Below are positions 45,215-59,636 of a stretch of DNA of 64,000 nucleotides, in pieces. Position numbers and translations under genes: made by a program. The notes below the pieces were generated by a model. It did no database searches and was not told where the DNA came from. It was given only the letters and a program-made list of their open reading frames with translations. The number at the start of each line of letters is the position of its first letter. The first letter of the stretch is position 1. Origin of the DNA: Candidatus Latescibacterota bacterium (GTDB taxonomy: Bacteria > Latescibacterota > UBA2968); the NCBI GenBank assembly GCA_965198115.1, contig OZ240241.1, forward strand, positions 7,840,001 to 7,904,000, read 5' to 3'.

Positions 45215-46397
45215 CACGATATCGACCTTTCGTCAACGGCATCTGGATGCCCTCTCAGGTCTGTTCAGGCAAGTGCTGTGTCTCTGCGTGAAGGCAGGTG
45301 TCTGGTGAAGCTGGGACACGTGGCGTTGGATGGCACGAAAGTCAAAGCAAATGCCTCAAAACACAAAGCGATGAGCTACGGCCGGATGAAGAAGAAAGAA
45401 GCCGAGATCGAGGCCGAAGTGCGCAGACTCTTGACCGAGGCCGAAGCCACTGACGCGGCCGAAGACGAACTCTACGGAAAGGACAACCGCGGCGACGAGT
45501 TGCCCGAGGAGTTGCAGCACCGGGAGACTCGACTCAAAGTAATCCGCGACGCAATAGCCGAGATCGAAGCCGAAGCGGAGGCTGAGTTTCCTGAGAAGCA
45601 GGCAGCGTATGAAGAGAAGGTAAAGGCCCGGGAGCGCCGCGGCGGTCGTGGACGTAAGCCCAAGCCTCCATCGAAAGAGCCCGACTGAAAGGAACAACTG
45701 AACTTCACCGATCCCGACTCACGGATCATGGTCTCAGGGGGCCAATTCCTTCAAGCCTACAACTGCCAAGCTGCTGTGGATGACAAGGCCCAGATTGTCG
45801 TTGCTGCCGACGTCACCCAAGAAGCTGATGACAAGAACCAGATGACACCTATGGTCAACCAGATCAGAGCGAATATGGGCGGCACGACACCCAAGCACCT
45901 CACTGCCGACACCGGATACTTCAACCAAAGTCAGGTCGACCAGGTTCAATCAGATGGCGTCGACCTCTATGTGGCGACGACAAAACAGAAACATGGAACG
46001 CCCATCGCGACCTGCCCCAGGGGACGGATCCCCAAGGGCGCAACGACGAAAGACAAAATGGCGAGAAAGCTTCTCACACAGAAAGGTCGCTGCACCTACT
46101 GGAAAAGAAAACAGATCATCGAACCCGTGTTTGGACAGATCAAATCCGTTCGGAACTTCACCCGATTCTCATTCCGCCGAATCCACAAAGTCATCAGAGA
46201 ATGGAACCTGATCTGTCTCACACACAACCTTCTGAAACTCTATCGACTCTCATTGGCTACCTGATCCCGAAGAGGAACTCGGCTCAAGGAAAAAACGAAG
46301 GTAACCGGTCGCTGACAGACTCAGCTGGACTTAATCTCAACGAGCTTCCGGGTGTAACCCGACAGGCTCCTAGCCTGAATTATGCATAAAAAAAAAG

Positions 46398-47817
46398 GGC
46401 TATATCCGGATCTCTCAACGAGCTGAAGTGGGTGAAGGTGCCGTGGTTCCTGGCATGGGGGCGCGGTTAGCGTGTGCGGAACCTCTTCGGAATCTGCTCA
46501 GGGATGTTTATGTCTCCGACGGTAAGGAAGATCATATCGTTGAATGCGTCGAGTGTGCGGAATCCGCTGGCTCGGTTCTTGACGATTTGGACGATTCGGT
46601 TGAGGCCTTCGGCGATGGCGTTGGTAAGACGCGTGTTCACGAATGCGAGGACGCCGAAGAAGTGCTGTCGCAGGGTCCTGACGAACTTTCGCAGGGGTTC
46701 AAGTCGACTTCTGAGTGCGGACGTCGTCCAGCATTTCAGGAAGCGTTCGGCAGCCCAGGGCGCTTTGTATTCCCAGAACTGCTCGAACTCGTCCTTGAGT
46801 CTCCAGGCTCTATAGATTCGGTAGTTCGCCTTCTCCAGTGCTTTGAGTGTCCGAGTATCCCCTCTGGAGCGTGTCGCTGAGTGCCGGTAGAGGAGCCATC
46901 GGAGGCCCTTCATGGCTTTGCGCTCATCCGGGGCAGCTTTACGCCACTGGTCCTTACGGACCTCGTCAACGGCGGCATTGAGAGCCTTGACGATGTGAAA
47001 GCGATCGAGGACCAGCTTGGCATTCGGACAGTGTTCCTGGATGGCTCCGATGTAAGCTTCGCTCATGTCGCAGCAGGCCCACTCGATCTTGGATCTCTGG
47101 TAGGGACTGAGAGCCTCTGTGAAGAACCGATCGATCGTTTTACGCGCCCTGCCGCGGCCAACCCACACCACGCAGGAGCGGTCCAGATCGTAAACGAGCG
47201 TGGCGTACCTGTGACGCTTGGCGTAGGAGATCTCGTCGATCCCGATGGTTTTGAGCCCTCGGATACGATGACCTTCACGAAGCCGCGTGATGGATCGGTG
47301 AAGGAGATCCGACAGCGTCGAGGCAGAGATGCGCAGTAACTCGGACGCCGCCTTCTGCGTCATGGTCTGGCAGTAGCGCAGCATGGCATACTCGAAGCGA
47401 TACGTCACCCGAGAGAACCGCTCCGCCCACGGAATCTCCTCGACCACACGACCGTGGGTAGGACACCGAATCTCCCGAGGATGGTAGAGAAGCCAGACCC
47501 TCCACCCGCACACCGGAATGTCACGCCACCGACGCGGATGGGGCATTGTGCGGACGATTTTACCTCGACGGCCGCACTCCGGACAACAACAACCATTCTT
47601 ATGTGGCTTTACGGCGATGACGAAGCAGCTTCTCCCCTCAAACCACCAGCTGACAACACGGAACCCCTTGAATCTCAGCAGTTTCGATAGTAATCTGCTC
47701 CCGGTCATAGGTCGCACCCCCTTCGCTTTGATTGTCCTACACACACAACCAAGCGTAGGGAACGATCTATGACCTTGTCATTCTATAGTTTCACCGTTGA
47801 GAAACCCGGATAGAGCC
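46398..47817 (-). mobile_element. ISL3-family element, copy B (1420 bp)
   Basis: Same IRs; A-rich flanks ataaaaaaaaag / ataaaaaag (imperfect TSD). Confidence 0.95.
46467..47744 (-). CDS. ISL3 transposase
   Basis: Intact 425-aa ORF (ATG 47708 is the likely start) with zinc finger and DDE motifs. Confidence 0.95.
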   Translation of the reverse strand: MCRTIKAKGVRPMTGSRLLSKLLRFKGFRVVSWWFEGRSCFVIAVKPHKNGCCCPECGRRGKIVRTMPHPRRWRDIPVCGWRVWLLYHPREIRCPTHGRVVEEIPWAERFSRVTYRFEYAMLRYCQTMTQKAASELLRISASTLSDLLHRSITRLREGHRIRGLKTIGIDEISYAKRHRYATLVYDLDRSCVVWVGRGRARKTIDRFFTEALSPYQRSKIEWACCDMSEAYIGAIQEHCPNAKLVLDRFHIVKALNAAVDEVRKDQWRKAAPDERKAMKGLRWLLYRHSATRSRGDTRTLKALEKANYRIYRAWRLKDEFEQFWEYKAPWAAERFLKCWTTSALRSRLEPLRKFVRTLRQHFFGVLAFVNTRLTNAIAEGLNRIVQIVKNRASGFRTLDAFNDMIFLTVGDINIPEQIPKRFRTR

Positions 47818-47903
47818 ATAAAAAAGGTAGTCTCCTTGTACAAGTGTTTGTTTTTACCTACATTAGGGCTGACACATCAAAACAACACTTGGAAGGAACT
47901 ACC

Positions 47904-49241
47904 GTGATAGAACCTAGTCAGATCCGGTTACCATTCGCAAGCATTTCGGGCAAGGTAGTTGAGGCTGATTTTGCCGGTGGCGCCGTCAGGAGTGACGGTG
48001 GAGTTCTGTTGCTTCGCGCCCTTGAGTCTCAGATGGGATTGATCGCCAGAATGGTAGATGCTTTGCGAGATCGTCGTCACCCAAGCTATATCGATCACAC
48101 GCTTTTGGATCTTGTGAAGCAGCGTGTTTTTCAGATCGCTTGCGGCTATGAAGATGCCGTCGATTGTGATGATTTGCGCCACGATCCGGGCGTCAAGGCT
48201 GCCTGCGATCGGCTTCCTCTTTCCGGTCCTGATCTCGGGAGCCAATCAACGATGACACGACTTGAGAATGATGTGCGACGCTCGGATTTGTATCGGCTCG
48301 CACGGGCTTTTGTAGACGGGTTCATCGCATCGTATGACCAGGCACCCCCAAGCATCATTCTCGATATCGACGACACGGATGACCCAACGCACGGTGCGCA
48401 ACAATTTTCACTCTTCAACGCGTATTACAATGAACACTGCTATATGCCGCTACATATCTATGAAGGCCAAAGCGGCAAGCTCATTACGACGATCTTGAGA
48501 CCCGGGCATCCGACGAACGGTAAACAGGTCGTTTCTATTCTCAAGCGCTTGGTGGAACACCTACGCGGATCTTGGCCAAACGTGGAGATCATCGTTCGCG
48601 CAGACTCAAAGTTCAGCTCACCAGAGATGCACGATTTCTGCGAAGACAACGGTATCTACTACGTTCTGGGCCAGGGCGCCAACTCCAAGCTCAAAGCGGC
48701 TGGACAAAACCTGATGGACCAAGCGCTACGTCTGAGCGAGCATAAGGAGACGATTCGCTTGTTCTCATCCTTCTCATATCAGGCTGGCACCTGGCGGCAG
48801 CCTCGCCGGATCATTCGCAAGGCTGAAGTCACAAACGGCGAAGCAAATCCAAGATACCGCGTGACCAATTTACAGAGTAATCGAGACGGCTTTATCTATG
48901 ATCGTATCTACTGCGCAAGGGGACGCACGGAAGGCTTCATCAAGGACCACAAAACATTCCTTCACTCCGATCGAACATCGTGCCACAAGTTTGAAGCCAA
49001 CCAGTTCCGACTCTTTCTACACAGTGCTGCATACGCCTTGCTTCACGCACTCCGATCACAGGGACTCAAGGGCACCGCGTGGACCAAACCTCAGGTCAAC
49101 ACGATACAGAACCGTTTCCTCAAAATCGGCGCGAGAGTCATTGAAAGCGCACGAAGAATCCGATTCCATTTTCCAACATCGTATCCACTCAAAAACGTCT
49201 TGGTGTCAATCATCACCAGGCTCGAAACGAACACGCAGTAA
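47904..49241 (+). CDS. IS1380-family transposase
   Basis: SDGGVLLL, QRVFQIACGYED, LDIDDTDDPTHGAQ, VRADS, YCARGRTEGFIKDHK, ANQFRL; GTG 47904 after GAAGGA. Confidence 0.95.
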   Translation: MIEPSQIRLPFASISGKVVEADFAGGAVRSDGGVLLLRALESQMGLIARMVDALRDRRHPSYIDHTLLDLVKQRVFQIACGYEDAVDCDDLRHDPGVKAACDRLPLSGPDLGSQSTMTRLENDVRRSDLYRLARAFVDGFIASYDQAPPSIILDIDDTDDPTHGAQQFSLFNAYYNEHCYMPLHIYEGQSGKLITTILRPGHPTNGKQVVSILKRLVEHLRGSWPNVEIIVRADSKFSSPEMHDFCEDNGIYYVLGQGANSKLKAAGQNLMDQALRLSEHKETIRLFSSFSYQAGTWRQPRRIIRKAEVTNGEANPRYRVTNLQSNRDGFIYDRIYCARGRTEGFIKDHKTFLHSDRTSCHKFEANQFRLFLHSAAYALLHALRSQGLKGTAWTKPQVNTIQNRFLKIGARVIESARRIRFHFPTSYPLKNVLVSIITRLETNTQ

Positions 49242-49614
49242 CAACGCCGATCTATACCGGGGACAGCTATGTACACGTCGCAAAACAACACCTGTTCCGG
49301 ACGAAAATCGTGACTCTTGCGACTCGTAGAGACCGCTTACGGGACCTTGGACATCCGAAGAAGCCGAGAACAAATCCTGTGCGTGATCACATCACTCCAA
49401 AACAACCTAAACTCAAATTCATGCATGATTCAGGCTAAAAAGCCCCGTCAAACCGCAACAGGGCCTTCTTTGTCGGAATTCTTAATCCGAAGGGACGAAA
49501 TCGTCTTTTCCGACCTCTGCCCTCTCCCACGCCCCTGCAGATCTCAGTGATCTCAGTGCCTGTCCTGAGTAGGCTGCGAAGCAGCCATACCGAAGGGGCC
49601 GCCTTGTATTTCAT

Positions 49615-50625: not shown

Positions 50626-53352
50626 GTGGGGGAGTGGGTCACTCGAGGGTTCGATGCCTTTTCCAGAGGCGTTTTCGGCAACGCCGGACAGAATTTGTAT
50701 GTATCGAGTGCCGGTGTGCTACAGAGGATCTTCCATTTCGATCTGAATTGCGACGGCTATGCCGACCTCGTGTTCTGCGACAGCCAGAACGATTGGGAGA
50801 AACCGCCGACTTCGGTCTATGAAGATCCGCTGGATTCTCGGCGCCTTGTCGAGCTCCCCGCTGAAGGAGGTTGGAGCGGTGTCGTCATCGATCTGACGGG
50901 CGACGGGTTCGACGACCTCGTGGTCGGCAACCATTACAACGGCATCCGGCGCGATCTGAGCTCGAGCGTGTATTTCGGATCGCCTGACGGCTGGTGCGAG
51001 CGCTACACGCAGCGACTACCCGCCCCGTTCACCACGTCTGTGGCGGCCGGCGACTTCAACGGCGACGGGAGGCTCGATCTCGCCTTCCTCTGTTGTCCAG
51101 ATCCCAGAGCGACAAACGACACGGCCGTACGGGTCTTCGCGCAGACGGAATTGGGCTTTGAAGCCAAGCAGCGAGAGGACTTATCGCTTCCAACATCGTC
51201 CAGCAGCCCCGAACAGCTGCTGTCGGCCGACCTGGATCGTGACGGCTTTCACGATCTCGTCGTGCGCGGGGCCGACGCATCGGTGCGCGTCTATTGGGGT
51301 GGGGAGAACGGTCTGAGCCCTGAACGGTTCATCGACGTCAAAGAAGCCAGCGATGTGCCTACCGTGAGACCGGATTTCGCGCACGCACGCGAACACGGAT
51401 ACGCCGAGTTTGTCGCCGACGCCGCACCCTTACCAGCGACGGTCCAGGACGAGGCAGGAGATGTGTGTCTCTTTCTCCCGTCGCGAGACGCCGCCTACCT
51501 CGTGCCGGTCCAACCCGGTCGTGCATTCGGCGTTCCTCAGACGCTGCCCTGCGTGAACCCGATGGCGGCTGCGACAGGCGATCCGGATGGTAGCGGCCGC
51601 ACATCGCTCGTCGTCGCGTGCAGGGATCCACACCGCGACGCCGAACGTTCCTGGGTGTTCCAACCCGATAACGAAGGGGGTTGGACGACTGACGGAGCAG
51701 TCTCTCTGCCCACGCACGGAGCTTGCGACGTCGTCGCGACCGACCTCGACGGCGATGGTCGCACGGAGATCGCCATTTGCCAGAGCCACACTGAGAACAG
51801 CTACACCACAGACTCAGTTGTGTTCAAAGAAGCTCGCAACCCGTTCCCATTCGAGACCCACGACGCACGTCGCGTGCTCGTAGGCCGGCCACGCGGAGCG
51901 GAGGGTCCTCCCGCACTCGCCTTCATCAACCACTTCGCAGGCCCCCTGCCGGGAAGCCGAGAGGTCGGCATCTACTGGGGTGGCGCGGACGGCTTCGACG
52001 CTGAGCGCAGGTCATCCGCGCCGTCCTGGGGCGCCGTCGAGTCGCTCGGAGTCGATGTCAACGACGACGGATGGCCCGACCTCGTGCTCGCCAACTGTTC
52101 GGAGAACTCGATCTGGATCGACCCTGGATCCTATGTCCTGCACGGAGGATTGGACGGGCTCGCAACAGAGCCGAGTCAGATCCTGCCCACGACACGCGCC
52201 CACGGCGTCGCCTGCGCCGACCTGGATCGGGATGGCTGGCTCGACCTGGTATTCTGCGGCTTTGCCAACTCCGAGTTGCTTCTACTCCGCGGCGGACCCG
52301 ACGGCTTCGACATCGAGCACCCGGAACGGATACAGCTCGTCTTTGAAGGCGACACCTGGAGCGAGCCACGATGGATCTACCTCGCGGACCTGAACCGCGA
52401 CGGCTGGCTCGATCTCGTGGTCCCGAACATCACGGGCGAACGCAGCGCGATCCTTTGGGGAAGTCCGGACGGATTCGACATCGAGCGTCGACAATTGCTC
52501 TCTGTCCGGCACGCCGCCTGCGCTCGGGCGGCAGACCTGAACGGCAACGGCTGGCTCGACCTCATCGTCGGCGGTCACGAGCCATCCGTGCTCGAACCAC
52601 ACGACAGCTTCGTCTACATCTATTGGAATGGTCCGGACGGATTGTCGGAAAGTCGTCGCACACTGCTGCCGGCCAGCGCGGTCAACGCCATCTCCGTCGC
52701 CGACTTCGACAACGACGGTCAACTTGACGTGTTCGCCTGTTCCTACCACGCCGGCCTCGAGCGTGACGTCGATTCCTTCCTCTACTGGAACAGAAGAGGG
52801 CGTGGCTTCAGCGAAACTGACCGCCAGCGGCTGTTCACGCACTCCGCGTCGGGTTGCGTCGCGGCCGACTTCGATGGAGACGGACGCGTGGACCTTGCGA
52901 TCGCTTACCACAAAGTTGAAGGCAGTCACGTCGGTCACTCGGCAGTGTGGTGGAACGGCGAAGACGGCTTCGATCCGCATCGCGTGACACGACTTCCGAC
53001 GAGCGGACCTCACGGGATGACCGCCATCGAACCAGGCAATCAGTTGGATCGTGGACCTGAGGAATACTATGAGTCCGAGCCCTACGAGCTTCCTAGGCCC
53101 GCCCGCACCATCGAGTGGGAAGCAGAGGTGCCGTCGACGTGTTGGGTACGGGCCCAGGTTCGTATGGCTCCCACGCGCGAGCGGCTGGGCGAAACCACGT
53201 GGTCCGGGCCAACAGGCGACACCAGCTGGTTCGAAAATAAGGATCGGCTTCCCAACCGGGCGGGACGGTGGATCCAATACCGCCTCGCACTCGGTGCCCG
53301 AAACGGATGCGGCTCCCCGCGGGTCACCCAGGTCCGCGTCATCTACGACTGA
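50626..53352 (+). CDS. FG-GAP/VCBS repeat protein
   Basis: About 11 D(L/F)(N/D)xDGxxDL repeats with YWG/LWG strands; C-terminal WIQYRLAL..SPRV domain. Confidence 0.92.
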   Translation: MGEWVTRGFDAFSRGVFGNAGQNLYVSSAGVLQRIFHFDLNCDGYADLVFCDSQNDWEKPPTSVYEDPLDSRRLVELPAEGGWSGVVIDLTGDGFDDLVVGNHYNGIRRDLSSSVYFGSPDGWCERYTQRLPAPFTTSVAAGDFNGDGRLDLAFLCCPDPRATNDTAVRVFAQTELGFEAKQREDLSLPTSSSSPEQLLSADLDRDGFHDLVVRGADASVRVYWGGENGLSPERFIDVKEASDVPTVRPDFAHAREHGYAEFVADAAPLPATVQDEAGDVCLFLPSRDAAYLVPVQPGRAFGVPQTLPCVNPMAAATGDPDGSGRTSLVVACRDPHRDAERSWVFQPDNEGGWTTDGAVSLPTHGACDVVATDLDGDGRTEIAICQSHTENSYTTDSVVFKEARNPFPFETHDARRVLVGRPRGAEGPPALAFINHFAGPLPGSREVGIYWGGADGFDAERRSSAPSWGAVESLGVDVNDDGWPDLVLANCSENSIWIDPGSYVLHGGLDGLATEPSQILPTTRAHGVACADLDRDGWLDLVFCGFANSELLLLRGGPDGFDIEHPERIQLVFEGDTWSEPRWIYLADLNRDGWLDLVVPNITGERSAILWGSPDGFDIERRQLLSVRHAACARAADLNGNGWLDLIVGGHEPSVLEPHDSFVYIYWNGPDGLSESRRTLLPASAVNAISVADFDNDGQLDVFACSYHAGLERDVDSFLYWNRRGRGFSETDRQRLFTHSASGCVAADFDGDGRVDLAIAYHKVEGSHVGHSAVWWNGEDGFDPHRVTRLPTSGPHGMTAIEPGNQLDRGPEEYYESEPYELPRPARTIEWEAEVPSTCWVRAQVRMAPTRERLGETTWSGPTGDTSWFENKDRLPNRAGRWIQYRLALGARNGCGSPRVTQVRVIYD

Positions 53353-53543: not shown

Positions 53544-54770
53544 CTAAAGCGCCCGTAGCAGCTCCATCGCCGCCTCGTTCACCCATCGACGACCGTGAAA
53601 CCGCTTCCCATACTCGAGCGGAGTGACGTCGTGGTACTCGTGCACCTTCTCATCCTCTGTGAAGTCGAGCGCCTTTCGGATCGAGGCCCTCGCGTTTGGA
53701 TCGGAACCCCTATCGAGCAGCGTCCGCGCCATCGACGCATCCTTCTGTCGACCACAGGTATACGCCTGTGACACAACAGCGCTGAACAGCGGCGGATGTC
53801 CGCCAAAACCATCATCGTCCACTTCCGCCCGTGCGCTCGGATCTGCACCTCGGTCGAGCAGCCAATCGAAGATCTCCTGCTCGTCGAAGTCCACGGCCAT
53901 ATGCAACAGCGTCCCACCGTCCAACGGCGTTCCGTGCAAACCCGTGCGGCCTTCGTTGGAATAGGGGTAAATGTCTTCGTAGGAGAAGTGCCGTGTCAGC
54001 AGATCGGGATTTCGTTCGAGGTGGTCTTCGAGCAGATCGATGCGGCCCTGGTGAAAAGCCATCGTTACCGTTTCGGGCAGCTCCGTCCCGTGTCGTGAAA
54101 GGATTTCGAGACAGCGATGTTTACCCTCCGGATTCCGGCTGTATGTCTCGAGGACCATCCGGAGCGGCTCGGTCGCGTTGCCCTCCCGATCGACCGGTGG
54201 CGCGCCCAGTTCGTCGACGAGGAAAGCGAGTCCGTCTCCACTCACCGTTTCGCACGGCAGCATCACCATCCCCGGTTCAGGCGCTCCACCCATCTCGGTC
54301 AGACGACGCGCAACATCGATCTTGCCCTGCAACACGGCTCGACTGAACGCGAACTGCACATCCTCTGCTCCGAGTTCCATCAGTAGGTCGATCACAGGTT
54401 GCTTGCCGAGGTTGGCGGCGAAAGACATCGGGGGTCCCCAGGAGGAATCCTCACCCCGAACCTGTTCCACCATCAGCTCCGGATGCTCCGTCACGAGCCG
54501 TCGGATGTCATCCAGCGCATCGTTGGAAATGGCGTGTGATAGTTCCGCACCCAGCCTCATACGCGGCCAACTCGGAAAATCATAGGTTCGTGCGAGGACC
54601 AGCTGCGCATCCGTCAGCTTGGCTTCAGTTCGCGGGACACCACGAGGATGGAATGCCTCGAACTCTTCCACAGCATCGGATTCGCCGGAGACATAGCTAT
54701 CCAGCAGATCCTTTGCCTGATTCTTGAGCTGTTCGAGATTGGGGTCGAGAGGAAGGCGGCGCTTGGCCAT
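53544..54770 (-). CDS. ankyrin-repeat protein with an N-terminal helical domain
   Basis: TLLHMAV..LLDRGADP and LLDRGSDPN; N-terminus LPLDPNLEQLKNQAKDLL..AQLVLARTYDFPSW; RBS AAGGAG before ATG 54770. Confidence 0.9.
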   Translation of the reverse strand: MAKRRLPLDPNLEQLKNQAKDLLDSYVSGESDAVEEFEAFHPRGVPRTEAKLTDAQLVLARTYDFPSWPRMRLGAELSHAISNDALDDIRRLVTEHPELMVEQVRGEDSSWGPPMSFAANLGKQPVIDLLMELGAEDVQFAFSRAVLQGKIDVARRLTEMGGAPEPGMVMLPCETVSGDGLAFLVDELGAPPVDREGNATEPLRMVLETYSRNPEGKHRCLEILSRHGTELPETVTMAFHQGRIDLLEDHLERNPDLLTRHFSYEDIYPYSNEGRTGLHGTPLDGGTLLHMAVDFDEQEIFDWLLDRGADPSARAEVDDDGFGGHPPLFSAVVSQAYTCGRQKDASMARTLLDRGSDPNARASIRKALDFTEDEKVHEYHDVTPLEYGKRFHGRRWVNEAAMELLRAL

Positions 54771-54787
54771 AGCCATCTCCTTTTGTA

Positions 54788-54895
54788 GAAACACCCGGTA
54801 TCCGCACCACGGGCAAGTGAAAGGAGACGTCTATCGCTCTCTGATAAGAAGGCTGGTCAGGTGGGCTCGGCCCTTTCCGCGGATTGGATGCTCCC
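54788..54895 (-). ncRNA. putative structured 5' leader RNA
   Basis: Nested pairings GAGCAUCC/GGGUGUUU, AUCCGCG/UGCGGAU and GGGC/GCCC enclose two internal hairpins and end just before the RBS. Predicted by eye only. Confidence 0.55.
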
Positions 54896-55105
54896 TGCGA
54901 GCACATCATTAGCCTGAATCATGCATGAATTTGAGTTTAGGTTGTTTTGGAGTGATGTGATCACGCACAGGATTTGTTCTCGGCTTCTTCGGATGTCCAA
55001 GGTCCCGTAAGCGGTCTCTACGAGTCGCAAGAGTCACGATTTTCGTCCGGAACAGGTGTTGTTTTGCGACGTGTACATAGCTGTCCCCGGTATAGATCGG
55101 CGTTG

Positions 55106-56443
55106 TTACTGCGTGTTCGTTTCGAGCCTGGTGATGATTGACACCAAGACGTTTTTGAGTGGATACGATGTTGGAAAATGGAATCGGATTCTTCGTGCGC
55201 TTTCAATGACTCTCGCGCCGATTTTGAGGAAACGGTTCTGTATCGTGTTGACCTGAGGTTTGGTCCACGCGGTGCCCTTGAGTCCCTGTGATCGGAGTGC
55301 GTGAAGCAAGGCGTATGCAGCACTGTGTAGAAAGAGTCGGAACTGGTTGGCTTCAAACTTGTGGCACGATGTTCGATCGGAGTGAAGGAATGTTTTGTGG
55401 TCCTTGATGAAGCCTTCCGTGCGTCCCCTTGCGCAGTAGATACGATCATAGATAAAGCCGTCTCGATTACTCTGTAAATTGGTCACGCGGTATCTTGGAT
55501 TTGCTTCGCCGTTTGTGACTTCAGCCTTGTGAATGATCCGGCGAGGCTGCCGGTAGGTGCCAGCCTGATATGAGAAGGATGAGAACAAGCGAATCGTCTC
55601 CTTATGCTCGCTCAGACGTAGCGCTTGGTCCATCAGGTTTTGTCCAGCCGCTTTGAGCCTGGAGTTGGCGCCCTGGCCCAGAACGTAGTAGATACCGTTG
55701 TCTTCGCAGAAATCGTGCATCTCTGGTGAGCTGAACTTTGAGTCTGCGCGAACGATGATCTCCACGTTTGGCCAAGATCCGCGTAGGTGTTCCACCAAGC
55801 GCTTGAGAATAGAAACGACCTGTTTACCGTTCGTCGGATGCCCGGGTCTCAAGATCGTCGTAATGAGCTTGCCGCTTTGGCCTTCATAGATATGTAGCGG
55901 CATATAGCAGTGTTCATTGTAATACGCGTTGAAGAGTGAAAATTGTTGCGCACCGTGCGTTGGGTCATCCGTGTCGTCGATATCGAGAATGATGCTTGGG
56001 GGTGCCTGGTCATACGATGCGATGAACCCGTCTACAAAAGCCCGTGCGAGCCGATACAAATCCGAGCGTCGCACATCATTCTCAAGTCGTGTCATCGTTG
56101 ATTGGCTCCCGAGATCAGGACCGGAAAGAGGAAGCCGATCGCAGGCAGCCTTGACGCCCGGATCGTGGCGCAAATCATCACAATCGACGGCATCTTCATA
56201 GCCGCAAGCGATCTGAAAAACACGCTGCTTCACAAGATCCAAAAGCGTGTGATCGATATAGCTTGGGTGACGACGATCTCGCAAAGCATCTACCATTCTG
56301 GCGATCAATCCCATCTGAGACTCAAGGGCGCGAAGCAACAGAACTCCACCGTCACTCCTGACGGCGCCACCGGCAAAATCAGCCTCAACTACCTTGCCCG
56401 AAATGCTTGCGAATGGTAACCGGATCTGACTAGGTTCTATCAC
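55106..56443 (-). CDS. IS1380-family transposase
   Basis: Near-identical to copy 1 (K>R, W>Y and R>H differences). Confidence 0.95.
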   Translation of the reverse strand: MIEPSQIRLPFASISGKVVEADFAGGAVRSDGGVLLLRALESQMGLIARMVDALRDRRHPSYIDHTLLDLVKQRVFQIACGYEDAVDCDDLRHDPGVKAACDRLPLSGPDLGSQSTMTRLENDVRRSDLYRLARAFVDGFIASYDQAPPSIILDIDDTDDPTHGAQQFSLFNAYYNEHCYMPLHIYEGQSGKLITTILRPGHPTNGKQVVSILKRLVEHLRGSWPNVEIIVRADSKFSSPEMHDFCEDNGIYYVLGQGANSRLKAAGQNLMDQALRLSEHKETIRLFSSFSYQAGTYRQPRRIIHKAEVTNGEANPRYRVTNLQSNRDGFIYDRIYCARGRTEGFIKDHKTFLHSDRTSCHKFEANQFRLFLHSAAYALLHALRSQGLKGTAWTKPQVNTIQNRFLKIGARVIESARRIRFHFPTSYPLKNVLVSIITRLETNTQ

Positions 56444-56529
56444 GGTAGTTCCTTCCAAGTGTTGTTTTGATGTGTCAGCCCTAATGTAGGTAAAAACAAA
56501 CACTTGTACAAGGAGACTACCTTTTTTAT

Positions 56530-57949
56530 GGCTATATCCGGATCTCTCAACGAGATGAAGTGGGTGAAGGTGCCGTGGTTCCTGGCATGGGGGCGCGGTT
56601 AGCGTGTGCGGAACCTCTTCGGAATCTGCTCAGGGATGTTTATGTCTCCGACGGTAAGGAAGATCATATCGTTGAATGCGTCGAGTGTGCGGAATCCGCT
56701 GGCTCGGTTCTTGACGATTTGGACGATTCGGTTGAGGCCTTCGGCGATGGCGTTGGTAAGACGCGTGTTCACGAATGCGAGGACGCCGAAGAAGTGCTGT
56801 CGCAGGGTCCTGACGAACTTTCGCAGGGGTTCAAGTCGACTTCTGAGTGCGGACGTCGTCCAGCATTTCAGGAAGCGTTCGGCAGCCCAGGGCGCTTTGT
56901 ATTCCCAGAACTGCTCGAACTCGTCCTTGAGTCTCCAGGCTCTATAGATTCGGTAGTTCGCCTTCTCCAGTGCTTTGAGTGTCCGAGTATCCCCTCTGGA
57001 GCGTGTCGCTGAGTGCCGGTAGAGGAGCCATCGGAGGCCCTTCATGGCTTTGCGCTCATCCGGGGCAGCTTTACGCCACTGGTCCTTACGGACCTCGTCA
57101 ACGGCGGCATTGAGAGCCTTGACGATGTGAAAGCGATCGAGGACCAGCTTGGCATTCGGACAGTGTTCCTGGATGGCTCCGATGTAAGCTTCGCTCATGT
57201 CGCAGCAGGCCCACTCGATCTTGGATCTCTGGTAGGGACTGAGAGCCTCTGTGAAGAACCGATCGATCGTTTTACGCGCCCTGCCGCGGCCAACCCACAC
57301 CACGCAGGAGCGGTCCAGATCGTAAACGAGCGTGGCGTACCTGTGACGCTTGGCGTAGGAGATCTCGTCGATCCCGATGGTTTTGAGCCCTCGGATACGA
57401 TGACCTTCACGAAGCCGCGTGATGGATCGGTGAAGGAGATCCGACAGCGTCGAGGCAGAGATGCGCAGCAACTCGGACGCCGCCTTCTGCGTCATGGTCT
57501 GGCAGTAGCGCAGCATGGCATACTCGAAGCGATACGTCACCCGAGAGAACCGCTCCGCCCACGGAATCTCCTCGACCACACGACCGTGGGTAGGACACCG
57601 AATCTCCCGAGGATGGTAGAGAAGCCAGACCCTCCACCCGCACACCGGAATGTCACGCCACCGACGCGGATGGGGCATTGTGCGGACGATTTTACCTCGA
57701 CGGCCGCACTCCGGACAACAACAACCATTCTTATGTGGCTTTACGGCGATGACGAAACAGCTTCTCCCCTCAAACCACCAGCTGACAACACGGAACCCCT
57801 TGAATCTCAGCAGTTTCGATAGTAATCTGCTCCCGGTCATAGGTCGCACCCCCTTCGCTTTGATTGTCCTACACACACAACCAAGCGTAGGGAACGATCT
57901 ATGACCTTGTCATTCTATAGTTTCACCGTTGAGAAACCCGGATAGAGCC
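56530..57949 (-). mobile_element. ISL3-family element, copy C (1420 bp)
   Basis: IRs; TSD TTTTTTAT at 56522-56529 and 57950-57957. Confidence 0.95.
56599..57876 (-). CDS. ISL3 transposase
   Basis: Intact 425-aa ORF. Confidence 0.95.
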   Translation of the reverse strand: MCRTIKAKGVRPMTGSRLLSKLLRFKGFRVVSWWFEGRSCFVIAVKPHKNGCCCPECGRRGKIVRTMPHPRRWRDIPVCGWRVWLLYHPREIRCPTHGRVVEEIPWAERFSRVTYRFEYAMLRYCQTMTQKAASELLRISASTLSDLLHRSITRLREGHRIRGLKTIGIDEISYAKRHRYATLVYDLDRSCVVWVGRGRARKTIDRFFTEALSPYQRSKIEWACCDMSEAYIGAIQEHCPNAKLVLDRFHIVKALNAAVDEVRKDQWRKAAPDERKAMKGLRWLLYRHSATRSRGDTRTLKALEKANYRIYRAWRLKDEFEQFWEYKAPWAAERFLKCWTTSALRSRLEPLRKFVRTLRQHFFGVLAFVNTRLTNAIAEGLNRIVQIVKNRASGFRTLDAFNDMIFLTVGDINIPEQIPKRFRTR

Positions 57950-57957
57950 TTTTTTAT

Positions 57958-59377
57958 GGCTATATCCGGATCTCTCAACGAGCTGAAGTGGGTGAAGGTG
58001 CCGTGGTTCCTGACATGGGGGCGCGGTTAGAGTGTGCGGAACCTCTTCGGAATCTGCTCAGGGATGTTTATGTCTCCGACGGTAAGGAAGATCATATCGT
58101 TGAATGCGTCGAGTGTGCGGAATCCGCTGGCTCGGTTCTTGACGATTTGGACGATTCGGTTGAGGCCTTCGGCGATGGCGTTGGTAAGACGCGTGTTCAC
58201 GAATGCGAGGACGCCGAAGAAGTGCTGTCGCAGGGTCCTGACGAACTTTCGCAGGGGTTCAAGTCGACTTCTGAGTGCGGACGTCGTCCAGCATTTCAGG
58301 AAGCGTTCGGCAGCCCAGGGCGCTTTGTATTCCCAGAACTGCTCGAACTCGTCCTTGAGTCTCCAGGCTCTATAGATTCGGTAGTTCGCCTTCTCCAGTG
58401 CTTTGAGTGTCCGAGTATCCCCTCTGGAGCGTGTCGCTGAGTGCCGGTAGAGGAGCCATCGGAGGCCCTTCATGGCTTTGCGCTCATCCGGGGCAGCTTT
58501 ACGCCACTGGTCCTTACGGACCTCGTCAACGGCGGCATTGAGAGCCTTGACGATGTGAAAGCGATCGAGGACCAGCTTGGCATTCGGACAGTGTTCCTGG
58601 ATGGCTCCGATGTAAGCTTCGCTCATGTCGCAGCAGGCCCACTCGATCTTGGATCTCTGGTAGGGACTGAGAGCCTCTGTGAAGAACCGATCGATCGTTT
58701 TACGCGCCCTGCCGCGGCCAACCCACACCACGCAGGAGCGGTCCAGATCGTAAACGAGCGTGGCGTACCTGTGACGCTTGGCGTAGGAGATCTCGTCGAT
58801 CCCGATGGTTTTGAGCCCTCGGATACGATGACCTTCACGAAGCCGCGTGATGGATCGGTGAAGGAGATCCGACAGCGTCGAGGCAGAGATGCGCAGTAAC
58901 TCGGACGCCGCCTTCTGCGTCATGGTCTGGCAGTAGCGCAGCATGGCATACTCGAAGCGATACGTCACCCGAGAGAACCGCTCCGCCCACGGAATCTCCT
59001 CGACCACACGACCGTGGGTAGGACACCGAATCTCCCGAGGATGGTAGAGAAGCCAGACCCTCCACCCGCACACCGGAATGTCACGCCACCGACGCGGATG
59101 GGGCATTGTGCGGACGATTTTACCTCGACGGCCGCACTCCGGACAACAACAACCATTCTTATGGGGCTTTACGGCGATGACGAAGCAGCTTCTCCCCTCA
59201 AACCACCAGCTGACAACACGGAACCCCTTGAATCTCAGCAGTTCCGATAGTAATCTGCTCCCGGTCATAGGTCGCACCCCCTTCGCTTTGATTGTCCTAC
59301 ACACACAACCAAGCGTAGGGAACGATCTATGACCTTGTCATTCTATAGTTTCACCGTTGAGAAACCCGGATAGAGCC
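57958..59377 (-). mobile_element. ISL3-family element, copy D (1420 bp)
   Basis: IRs; TSD TTTTTTAT at 57950-57957 and 59378-59385. Confidence 0.95.
58027..59304 (-). CDS. ISL3 transposase
   Basis: Intact 425-aa ORF. Confidence 0.95.
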   Translation of the reverse strand: MCRTIKAKGVRPMTGSRLLSELLRFKGFRVVSWWFEGRSCFVIAVKPHKNGCCCPECGRRGKIVRTMPHPRRWRDIPVCGWRVWLLYHPREIRCPTHGRVVEEIPWAERFSRVTYRFEYAMLRYCQTMTQKAASELLRISASTLSDLLHRSITRLREGHRIRGLKTIGIDEISYAKRHRYATLVYDLDRSCVVWVGRGRARKTIDRFFTEALSPYQRSKIEWACCDMSEAYIGAIQEHCPNAKLVLDRFHIVKALNAAVDEVRKDQWRKAAPDERKAMKGLRWLLYRHSATRSRGDTRTLKALEKANYRIYRAWRLKDEFEQFWEYKAPWAAERFLKCWTTSALRSRLEPLRKFVRTLRQHFFGVLAFVNTRLTNAIAEGLNRIVQIVKNRASGFRTLDAFNDMIFLTVGDINIPEQIPKRFRTL

Positions 59378-59636
59378 TTTTTTATGCATAATTCAGGCTA
59401 GAGACACCATATCGATCCACGCGCAAAATACATTTAAAGATCGACTGCGAGTTCCGAATCCCGAGTAGAGATCTTCGAGTGTAGAAGGACGCCCCCTCAT
59501 CTTGTTCGCAGGCGGGGGTACATCCTGAGCCCTCGGCTTCGCTCAGGATAATCCGTCGAAGGGCGCTCCCACCGGTTGTCTGCGACCTCCTATCCACCCG
59601 GGGCCCATTGTTCCCTACCAAGTCTTCTTGTTTTTC

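Follow-up and report, generated by a model that had tools for sequence, protein, structure and literature searches.

Does the RNA upstream of an ankyrin-repeat protein gene in a Candidatus Latescibacterota genome form a conserved structure, and does that structure belong with the N-terminal domain that the gene encodes? The gene lies in a window of 64,000 nucleotides, the whole stretch of DNA that was analysed (GenBank assembly GCA_965198115.1, contig OZ240241.1, positions 7,840,001 to 7,904,000), and had been singled out as a candidate pairing of a multi-stem leader with an ankyrin protein. Window coordinates of the features are collected in Table 1.

The N-terminal domain of the ankyrin protein

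The original prediction described a distinct non-ankyrin domain at the start of the protein, and this was confirmed: the quoted motifs are present and the domain spans about 78 amino acids. A Pfam scan of the window protein returned ankyrin matches at residues 285-362, the repeats making up the C-terminal half, and no match in the N-terminal part. Structure prediction for the domain gave four helices with confidence (pLDDT 92). Foldseek with this model returned nothing at an E-value of 0.001, and the best fold-search match (Z 4.2, rmsd 4.2, 65 aligned) neither marks the fold as new nor speaks against a known one. A sequence search of solved structures with the domain returned designed helical proteins and chance rows only, while three clusters without a name in the ESM Atlas (0.75-0.81) serve as a lead only. 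The type I profile (our term for relatives of the window domain) alone collected 10,394 clusters at 50% identity (E-value 0.001), many family proteins having two to three matched domain stretches. Among 61 domains scanned with Pfam, we found weak OST-HTH/LOTUS matches in 3 and weak Glyoxalase_8 matches (E-value up to 0.1) in 13; scans of the same 61 with NCBIfam, PHROGs and PADLOC gave no family common to more than two.

A likeness to Glyoxalase_8 (PF20066) had been suggested for this domain. It holds at the level of profiles (hhalign probability 97.4, E-value 1.2e-11, 55 columns), as an N-terminal homology, but lies below the Pfam cut-off of 23.7 bits: the window protein gave no match and the best full-length relative reached 21.5 bits. 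The two have motifs in common (LKxQAKxL and one like LELVARxxGFxDW), whereas the type I domain usually has about 20 extra residues between them and lacks the C-terminal part of PF20066. Downstream, a gene for an FG-GAP repeat protein (908 aa, window 50626-53352) converges on the ankyrin gene; we saw no tie to the leader.

Table 1. Features of the ankyrin locus, in window coordinates
Feature	Position	Strand	Remarks
Ankyrin-repeat protein gene	53544..54770	-	408 aa; ATG at 54770
N-terminal helical domain, about 78 aa	54537..54770	-	Distantly related to the N-terminal part of Glyoxalase_8; putative RNA binder
Conserved leader RNA (type I)	54768..54906	-	From just before P1 to the start codon; covariance-model match of 94 bits (copy in the training set)
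Hairpin P1	54890..54902	-	Loop bases 54894-54897 are the 5' side of pseudoknot PK1; covariation
Two-pair helix P2, then conserved nAA	54877..54887	-	Loop 54879-54884 provides the 5' side of the kissing pseudoknot PK2
Hairpin P3	54863..54873	-	99% of cells paired; swaps from G-C to A-U
PK1 3' strand	54858..54861	-	Top covarying pairs in two alignments, absent from the model; A-U in 43 and G-C in 19 of 65
Anti-Shine-Dalgarno strand (P5 5' strand)	54820..54828	-	Compensatory change in 9/9 pairs in alignment A3 and 8/9 in A4, both fitted to a model already holding P5
Hairpin P4	54793..54814	-	Loop carries the PK2 3' strand (54800-54805); covariation
Shine-Dalgarno strand, predicted paired in P5	54775..54783	-	Sequence; mean unpaired probability 0.20 vs 0.35 in controls
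DDE transposon (Pfam DDE_Tnp_1_4)	54910..59400	-	Two ISL3 copies nested near the far end

Conserved fold and position of the leader

A conserved leader does lie upstream of the gene, as had been claimed, but the fold proposed for it was mostly wrong. That fold equals the minimum-free-energy fold of 54770-54900 (-37.8 kcal/mol), yet it is no better than chance (z +0.68, 140 of 200 shuffles as good, ensemble frequency 0.012). Rfam 15 gave no match over the leader, either in the scan of the whole window or in the leader region at an E-value of 10, and a lead to the sul1 motif, which that release includes, found no support. Since the single-sequence fold was at shuffle level and Rfam had no match, the leader had to be judged by comparison, and single-sequence folding was dropped as evidence for structure.

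Searching 168 Latescibacterota genomes for the domain gave 209 matches, spread over 70 of them; we took 93 loci, aligned 57 leaders and trained model R1 on these with the nested helices only, leaving out PK1, PK2 and P2. R1 found a leader at 79 of the 93 protein-first loci (22 of the 36 held out from training). The five helices first proposed were then re-counted on the 57 homologous leaders. Only AUCCGCG/UGCGGAU holds, with 95% of cells paired; it is the PK2 helix. The helix GAGCAUCC/GGGUGUUU (55% of cells paired) and the hairpins CUGACCAG (53%) and GAGAGCG (33%) do not, and GGGC/GCCC in the proposed register is 86% paired yet shows compensatory change in none of its 4 pairs. Covariation upstream of homologues, suggested as a check, is strong but supports a different fold, which does not close a few nucleotides before AAGGAG, as had been thought, and instead pairs the ribosome-binding site itself.

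From its 5' end this fold consists of P1, PK1 (joining the P1 loop to the strand after P3), P2 with nAA after it, P3, a linker that varies from 15 to 57 nt and is never shorter, and a long 3' hairpin made up of P5 and P4. The loop of this hairpin forms the kissing interaction PK2 with the P2 loop, and at the base of the hairpin the Shine-Dalgarno sequence is paired. Covariation in a plain alignment had as its top two pairs those joining the P1 loop with bases just past P3, outside any nested fold, and in P2 the pair 24-37 of alignment A3 has 5 compensatory cells. The P5 duplex is rich in G-U pairs and of modest strength (-8.8 kcal/mol). No covarying alternative fold was found on the homologous leaders.

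An independent, RNA-first set came from a DNA pattern scan of species genomes that yielded at least 120 loci, of which 80 with flanks were scored together with 7 viral ones; 65 of these 87 were true leaders, assigned by record title to Actinomycetota, Acidobacteriota, Gemmatimonadota, Alpha- and Betaproteobacteria, Verrucomicrobiota, Planctomycetota and others. On these 65 leaders the 33-pair structure pairs in 95.3% of 2128 cells, with compensatory changes in 20 of 33 pairs; none of 500 shuffles scored as high and slid partners gave 42-51%, in controls that take no account of kinship and with P1 and P3-P5 counted on alignments fitted to them. As the pattern scan had fixed PK2 in this set, PK2 was judged on the 79 protein-first leaders instead (alignment A4), where it is 98.9% paired with 3 of 6 pairs compensated; its sequence is nearly invariant in type I. 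Many G-C pairs of the structure never vary among the 65 leaders, and among the unpaired positions just 3 are near-invariant. G-U pairs are more frequent than A-C mismatches (240 vs 58 overall, 25 vs 14 in the pseudoknots), which favours an RNA on this strand. The geometry is strict: in 101 of 114 leaders, 2 nt follow the kissing strand on its 3' side.

A hexamer resembling TTGACA starts 32-42 nt before P1 in 60 of 114 non-redundant leaders, against 18 of 559 background windows, and folding prediction on the 114 leaders gives the Shine-Dalgarno sequence a mean unpaired probability of 0.20; with a shuffled 5' part the value is 0.35. From the hexamer position and this pairing, the leader is likely the 5' end of the message, in a translation-off state when folded. 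The transcript would start 2-3 nt before P1.

At the window's own copy the DDE transposon, which we take to be of the IS1380 family, ends 8 nt upstream of P1, inside the putative -10 region, a feature overlooked in the original prediction. By eye, its far flank is like the promoter region of a same-genus orthologue, so the insertion likely split the leader's -10 box. A search for a consensus promoter of this copy found none, and the copy may be silent. The window has no terminator-like site between leader and gene. The DDE_Tnp_1_4 element has 67 BLAST matches in the genome, 18 of them near full length, and the two insertion-sequence nests of the window (54910-59400 and 46391-49452) show it receiving ISL3 copies repeatedly at the same point near one end.

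Co-occurrence of leader and domain in three subfamilies

The window's own genome has four domain genes, one of them frameshifted, and all four are preceded by the leader; nhmmer with the window leader returned only those four upstream regions, and the profiles agree. In the frameshifted paralogue (G000:C1:70657-70896) the frame is broken after about 65 codons and the leader is intact. Among the 65 RNA-first leaders, the first reading frame that follows has the domain in 63, the other two being a truncated start and a degraded remnant. We also counted both partners in six whole genomes, chosen as domain-rich, scoring 150 candidates per genome and setting aside fragments and second copies per frame: 52 of 53 RNA matches (E-value below 1e-8) stand directly before a domain, the remaining one heads a two-gene unit of a FliG-like gene and then a domain gene, and 53 of 62 domain genes have the RNA. 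Each locus has a single copy of the leader, and a genome has up to 16 copies. A detectable leader is absent from 14 of the 93 protein-first loci (14 of the 36 held out) and from 9 of the 62 domain genes in the six genomes; model R2 found no match before the 14 leaderless type I genes.

That the RNA tracks with the N-terminal domain across different C-terminal fusions was borne out, and the fusion partners are unrelated. In the 59 proteins scanned, the domain is followed by ankyrin repeats, an APH kinase, a sigma-54 AAA domain, TPR, FliG, PcfJ, an epimerase, AhpC, a glyoxalase, a bifunctional nuclease, or nothing. These domains have no pathway in common; several are detoxification-like (glyoxalase-like, aminoglycoside-kinase-like), and those with Pfam matches are mostly not nucleases. 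FliG- or FliM-like domains recur as fusion partners or neighbours (L042, L061, L072, L310, P0098, P0104, P0137, P0209).

Several loci depart from the usual arrangement. In two (L012:1276-1500 and L019) a short reading frame begins at the leader's own TTG start and runs for about 29 codons, its stop codon overlapping the ATG of the domain gene in the manner of translational coupling. Two domain genes (L024, L054) have apparently lost all or the 5' half of the leader, the first with a transposase-like sequence directly upstream. Five stand-alone domain proteins of 84-115 aa (L087, L088, L090, L091, L092) have no leader, four of them having a different conserved upstream region in common; they could be free trans-acting regulators. 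One contig from a viral collection (L218, IMGVR_UViG_3300036904_000151) has a true type I leader with a domain gene.

These results also bear on a leader that acts as a stable RNA partner, kept in place or cut off as a small RNA in a ribonucleoprotein with the N-terminal domain (antitoxin-like, a scaffold or a protective 5' structure), where pairing of the ribosome-binding site would only limit output. Two pseudoknots with a strict geometry (101/114, linker never below 15 nt) suit one stable fold, as do the two to three domain stretches of many proteins and the lack of a covarying alternative. We nevertheless regard this as quite improbable, given the single copy without an array, the absence of a terminator-like site between leader and gene in the window, the C-terminal domains that are mostly not nucleases, and an anti-Shine-Dalgarno helix that is strongly selected and has many G-U pairs.

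Because leader and domain are adjacent DNA, most of their co-occurrence is expected from linkage alone. What goes beyond linkage is confined to the cases in which a MATE or FliG-like gene comes first and to the pattern across three subfamilies, among related genomes that are not independent.

Before true Glyoxalase_8 genes we found a second RNA (type II), which model R1 misses (3.2 bits). Its sequence cannot be aligned with type I and P3 is inserted elsewhere, but the core topology is the same: P1, PK1, P2 then GAA, and a PK2 formed with the loop of a 3' hairpin that, by eye, often stops just short of the Shine-Dalgarno sequence and not over it. An alignment of 22 of 25 loci is 94.5% paired, with compensatory changes in both pseudoknots; the three left out are an RNA upstream of an intervening MATE gene, a Glyoxalase_8 match without the N-part, at which there is no RNA, and a helicase gene. 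At four loci (L246, L250, L270, L286) an N-part of Glyoxalase_8 type is joined to another kind of domain, among them a Lon substrate-binding domain and a ClpX zinc finger, and each of these genes has a type II leader ahead of it.

A third RNA (type III) precedes genes for the DnaB-like helicase PRK05973 (NF004629) at 24 of 24 readable loci out of 25. The N-part of this helicase is related by profile to type I (probability 88.8, 29 columns) and to type II (94.1), and its leader has the helix order of type I with the ribosome-binding site in a stem; it differs in a shorter domain, one fixed C-terminal ATPase and another PK2 sequence. The type III alignment (23 sequences) is 94.8% paired with 11 of 27 pairs compensated, though none in PK2. 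Model R2 gave no match at the type III loci, and a search for PRK05973 among the genomes around G170 found none over the cut-off in 250 scored genomes. The core topology is common to three subfamilies whose pseudoknot sequences differ. Rfam 15 matched the leader at none of 10 type I, 22 type II-search and 5 type III loci; elsewhere in those loci it returned tRNA, a SAM riboswitch, SorX-like and chance matches, one SorX-like match lying downstream of a PRK05973 gene (L253:1293-1358) at 46.1 bits, against a gathering score of 46.6.

We surveyed 81 genomes of one alphaproteobacterial family for type II RNA and the domain, scoring 39 candidates per genome; since the candidates were limited to that number, the genomes are incomplete and kin are not independent, the survey is suggestive and not a test. 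The RNA occurs in 40 genomes and the domain in 39; in the single mismatch (G675) the RNA lies 52 nt from a contig end. With G675 set aside, the other 41 genomes, which lack the domain, have no RNA match, and 3 of 53 domain matches have no RNA. Of the 59 RNA sites, 48 immediately precede a domain gene and 2 a MATE gene that is itself followed by a domain gene; 2 more lie at contig ends. The remaining 7 head a MATE gene, confirmed as MatE with Pfam in 4 cases, and the fetched stretch contains no domain gene; every one of them comes from a genome with the domain at another locus. Overall, the order RNA, MATE, domain gene was found at 3 loci, so that type II RNA heads MATE genes at 10. This pattern is suggestive of a diffusible partner and would argue against a mechanism acting through the nascent peptide or coding sequence.

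The MATE loci could also speak for an orphan translational riboswitch, in which a small molecule or ion, for instance a toxic compound or a stress metabolite, would bind the 5' double pseudoknot and thereby gate the ribosome-binding-site helix; the N-terminal domain would then be a co-regulated passenger or a binder of the same signal. A compact, tertiary-type fold with an expression-platform-like 3' hairpin, the many invariant G-C pairs and type II RNA directly ahead of efflux genes (7 alone, 3 then followed by a domain gene) fit this reading, and the detoxification theme of MATE pump, glyoxalase-like and aminoglycoside-kinase-like genes would suit a ligand sensor too. We consider it unlikely because only 3 unpaired bases are near-invariant, the subfamilies differ in pseudoknot sequence, the fused domains share no pathway and the 41 domain-less genomes have no RNA. 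What the downstream genes have in common is the domain, though 7 RNA sites head MATE genes alone.

Physical adjacency, with a G-U-rich ribosome-binding-site helix of modest strength, would be expected of a structure that needs no protein (thermometer-like or mRNA-stabilising) and that is merely carried along when domain shuffling moves the first 230 bases of the gene. This is very improbable in our view: RNA type stays paired with domain subfamily across large distances, and RNA without an adjacent domain gene occurs only where the genome has the domain elsewhere.

Proposed control of translation and known systems

Conservation of the RNA, its covariation and its position at the front of the unit are shown, as is its tight co-occurrence with the domain in three diverged subfamilies. 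Judging from these sequence comparisons, we think it rather probable that the N-terminal domain binds the leader and thereby controls translation of its own gene and of other leader-bearing genes. The folded state, with PK1, PK2, P4 and P5 together, would be the translation-off state; the domain would bind the folded 5' part, most likely stabilising it, and the ribosome-binding site would probably be held closed by the bound domain. Feedback would then be negative and pooled over all paralogues, one loop being common to all leader-bearing genes, and the varied C-terminal domains may be cargo under dosage control or else sensors that tune binding. Control is more likely to be by repression than by activation, although the ribosome-binding site is predicted to be mostly paired without protein, which makes a repressor less obviously needed.

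More broadly, we tentatively propose that a superfamily of RNA-binding domains and its cognate double-pseudoknot RNA form a portable module of promoter, leader and domain, grafted onto unrelated proteins and operons so that a single feedback circuit would govern them after transcription; at least three subfamilies would each have an orthogonal pair of their own. If true, this would give the Glyoxalase_8 N-terminus its first function, assign a function to a very large unannotated domain family and add a class of structured bacterial leader RNA that spans many phyla. It would also point to a regulon controlled after transcription, with a multidrug-type efflux gene among its members in culturable relatives of Rhizobium, and the RNA-protein pairs, being small and diverged, might serve as orthogonal switches of translation. 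Were the RNA a riboswitch instead, it would be a common orphan class with a new ligand.

A literature search, with subscription journals outside its scope, found no description of the RNA or the domain. The parts consulted of PMC5737381 and PMC11109978 hold nothing relevant, and their supplements may list the motif under another name; the same is true of the parts consulted of PMC2864571 with its supplements, in which Solibacter-1 and Soil-1 are different sequences, of the text and one supplement of PMC8632094 (by term search) and of the supplements of PMC6429828. A phage or plasmid element was rejected as an explanation: annotated phages gave no match, 5 of 6 plasmid records are non-mobilizable, and 1 of 7 viral pattern matches is a true leader.

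In type III toxin-antitoxin systems the gene for a nuclease toxin is preceded by arrayed pseudoknot repeats and a terminator; this assignment was likewise rejected, on the single copy per locus, the absence of a terminator-like site in the window and the absence of a credible PADLOC match. Translational riboswitches with kissing loops or double pseudoknots, such as that for cobalamin, resemble the present RNA in having a tertiary fold beside the ribosome-binding site; the present RNA differs in having no Rfam match and few invariant unpaired bases, and in being tied to a protein domain and not to a pathway. The sul1 RNA motif, as described in the parts consulted of the source (Weinberg 2017; PMC5737381), is likewise an orphan cis-regulatory candidate in 5' UTRs, but it lies near sulfate-transport and sulfur genes, and none of our three types matches it or any other Rfam family.

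ANTAR, a small helical domain that occurs in fusions with varied sensor domains, gave no Pfam match among the 61 domains at an E-value of 0.1, nor in the window protein. The consulted parts of PMC8164766 describe an ANTAR protein recruited to a structured leader, with translational control when the RNA overlaps the ribosome-binding site; the pairing of a protein with a structured leader and the overlap with that site are similar here, where binding is inferred. ANTAR targets are dual stem-loops, whereas covariation gives the present RNA two pseudoknots and a long occluding hairpin, and this RNA mostly precedes the gene of its candidate binder. In that respect it resembles autogenous leaders: in the sections consulted of PMC11109978, candidates for protein binding are defined as motifs that lie in the 5' UTR of the message encoding their likely binder, and here too a structured motif in the 5' UTR of the candidate binder overlaps a translation signal (the Shine-Dalgarno sequence, with compensatory changes). 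It differs from these leaders in its partner, a portable domain joined to many unrelated ones, with up to 16 leaders per genome.
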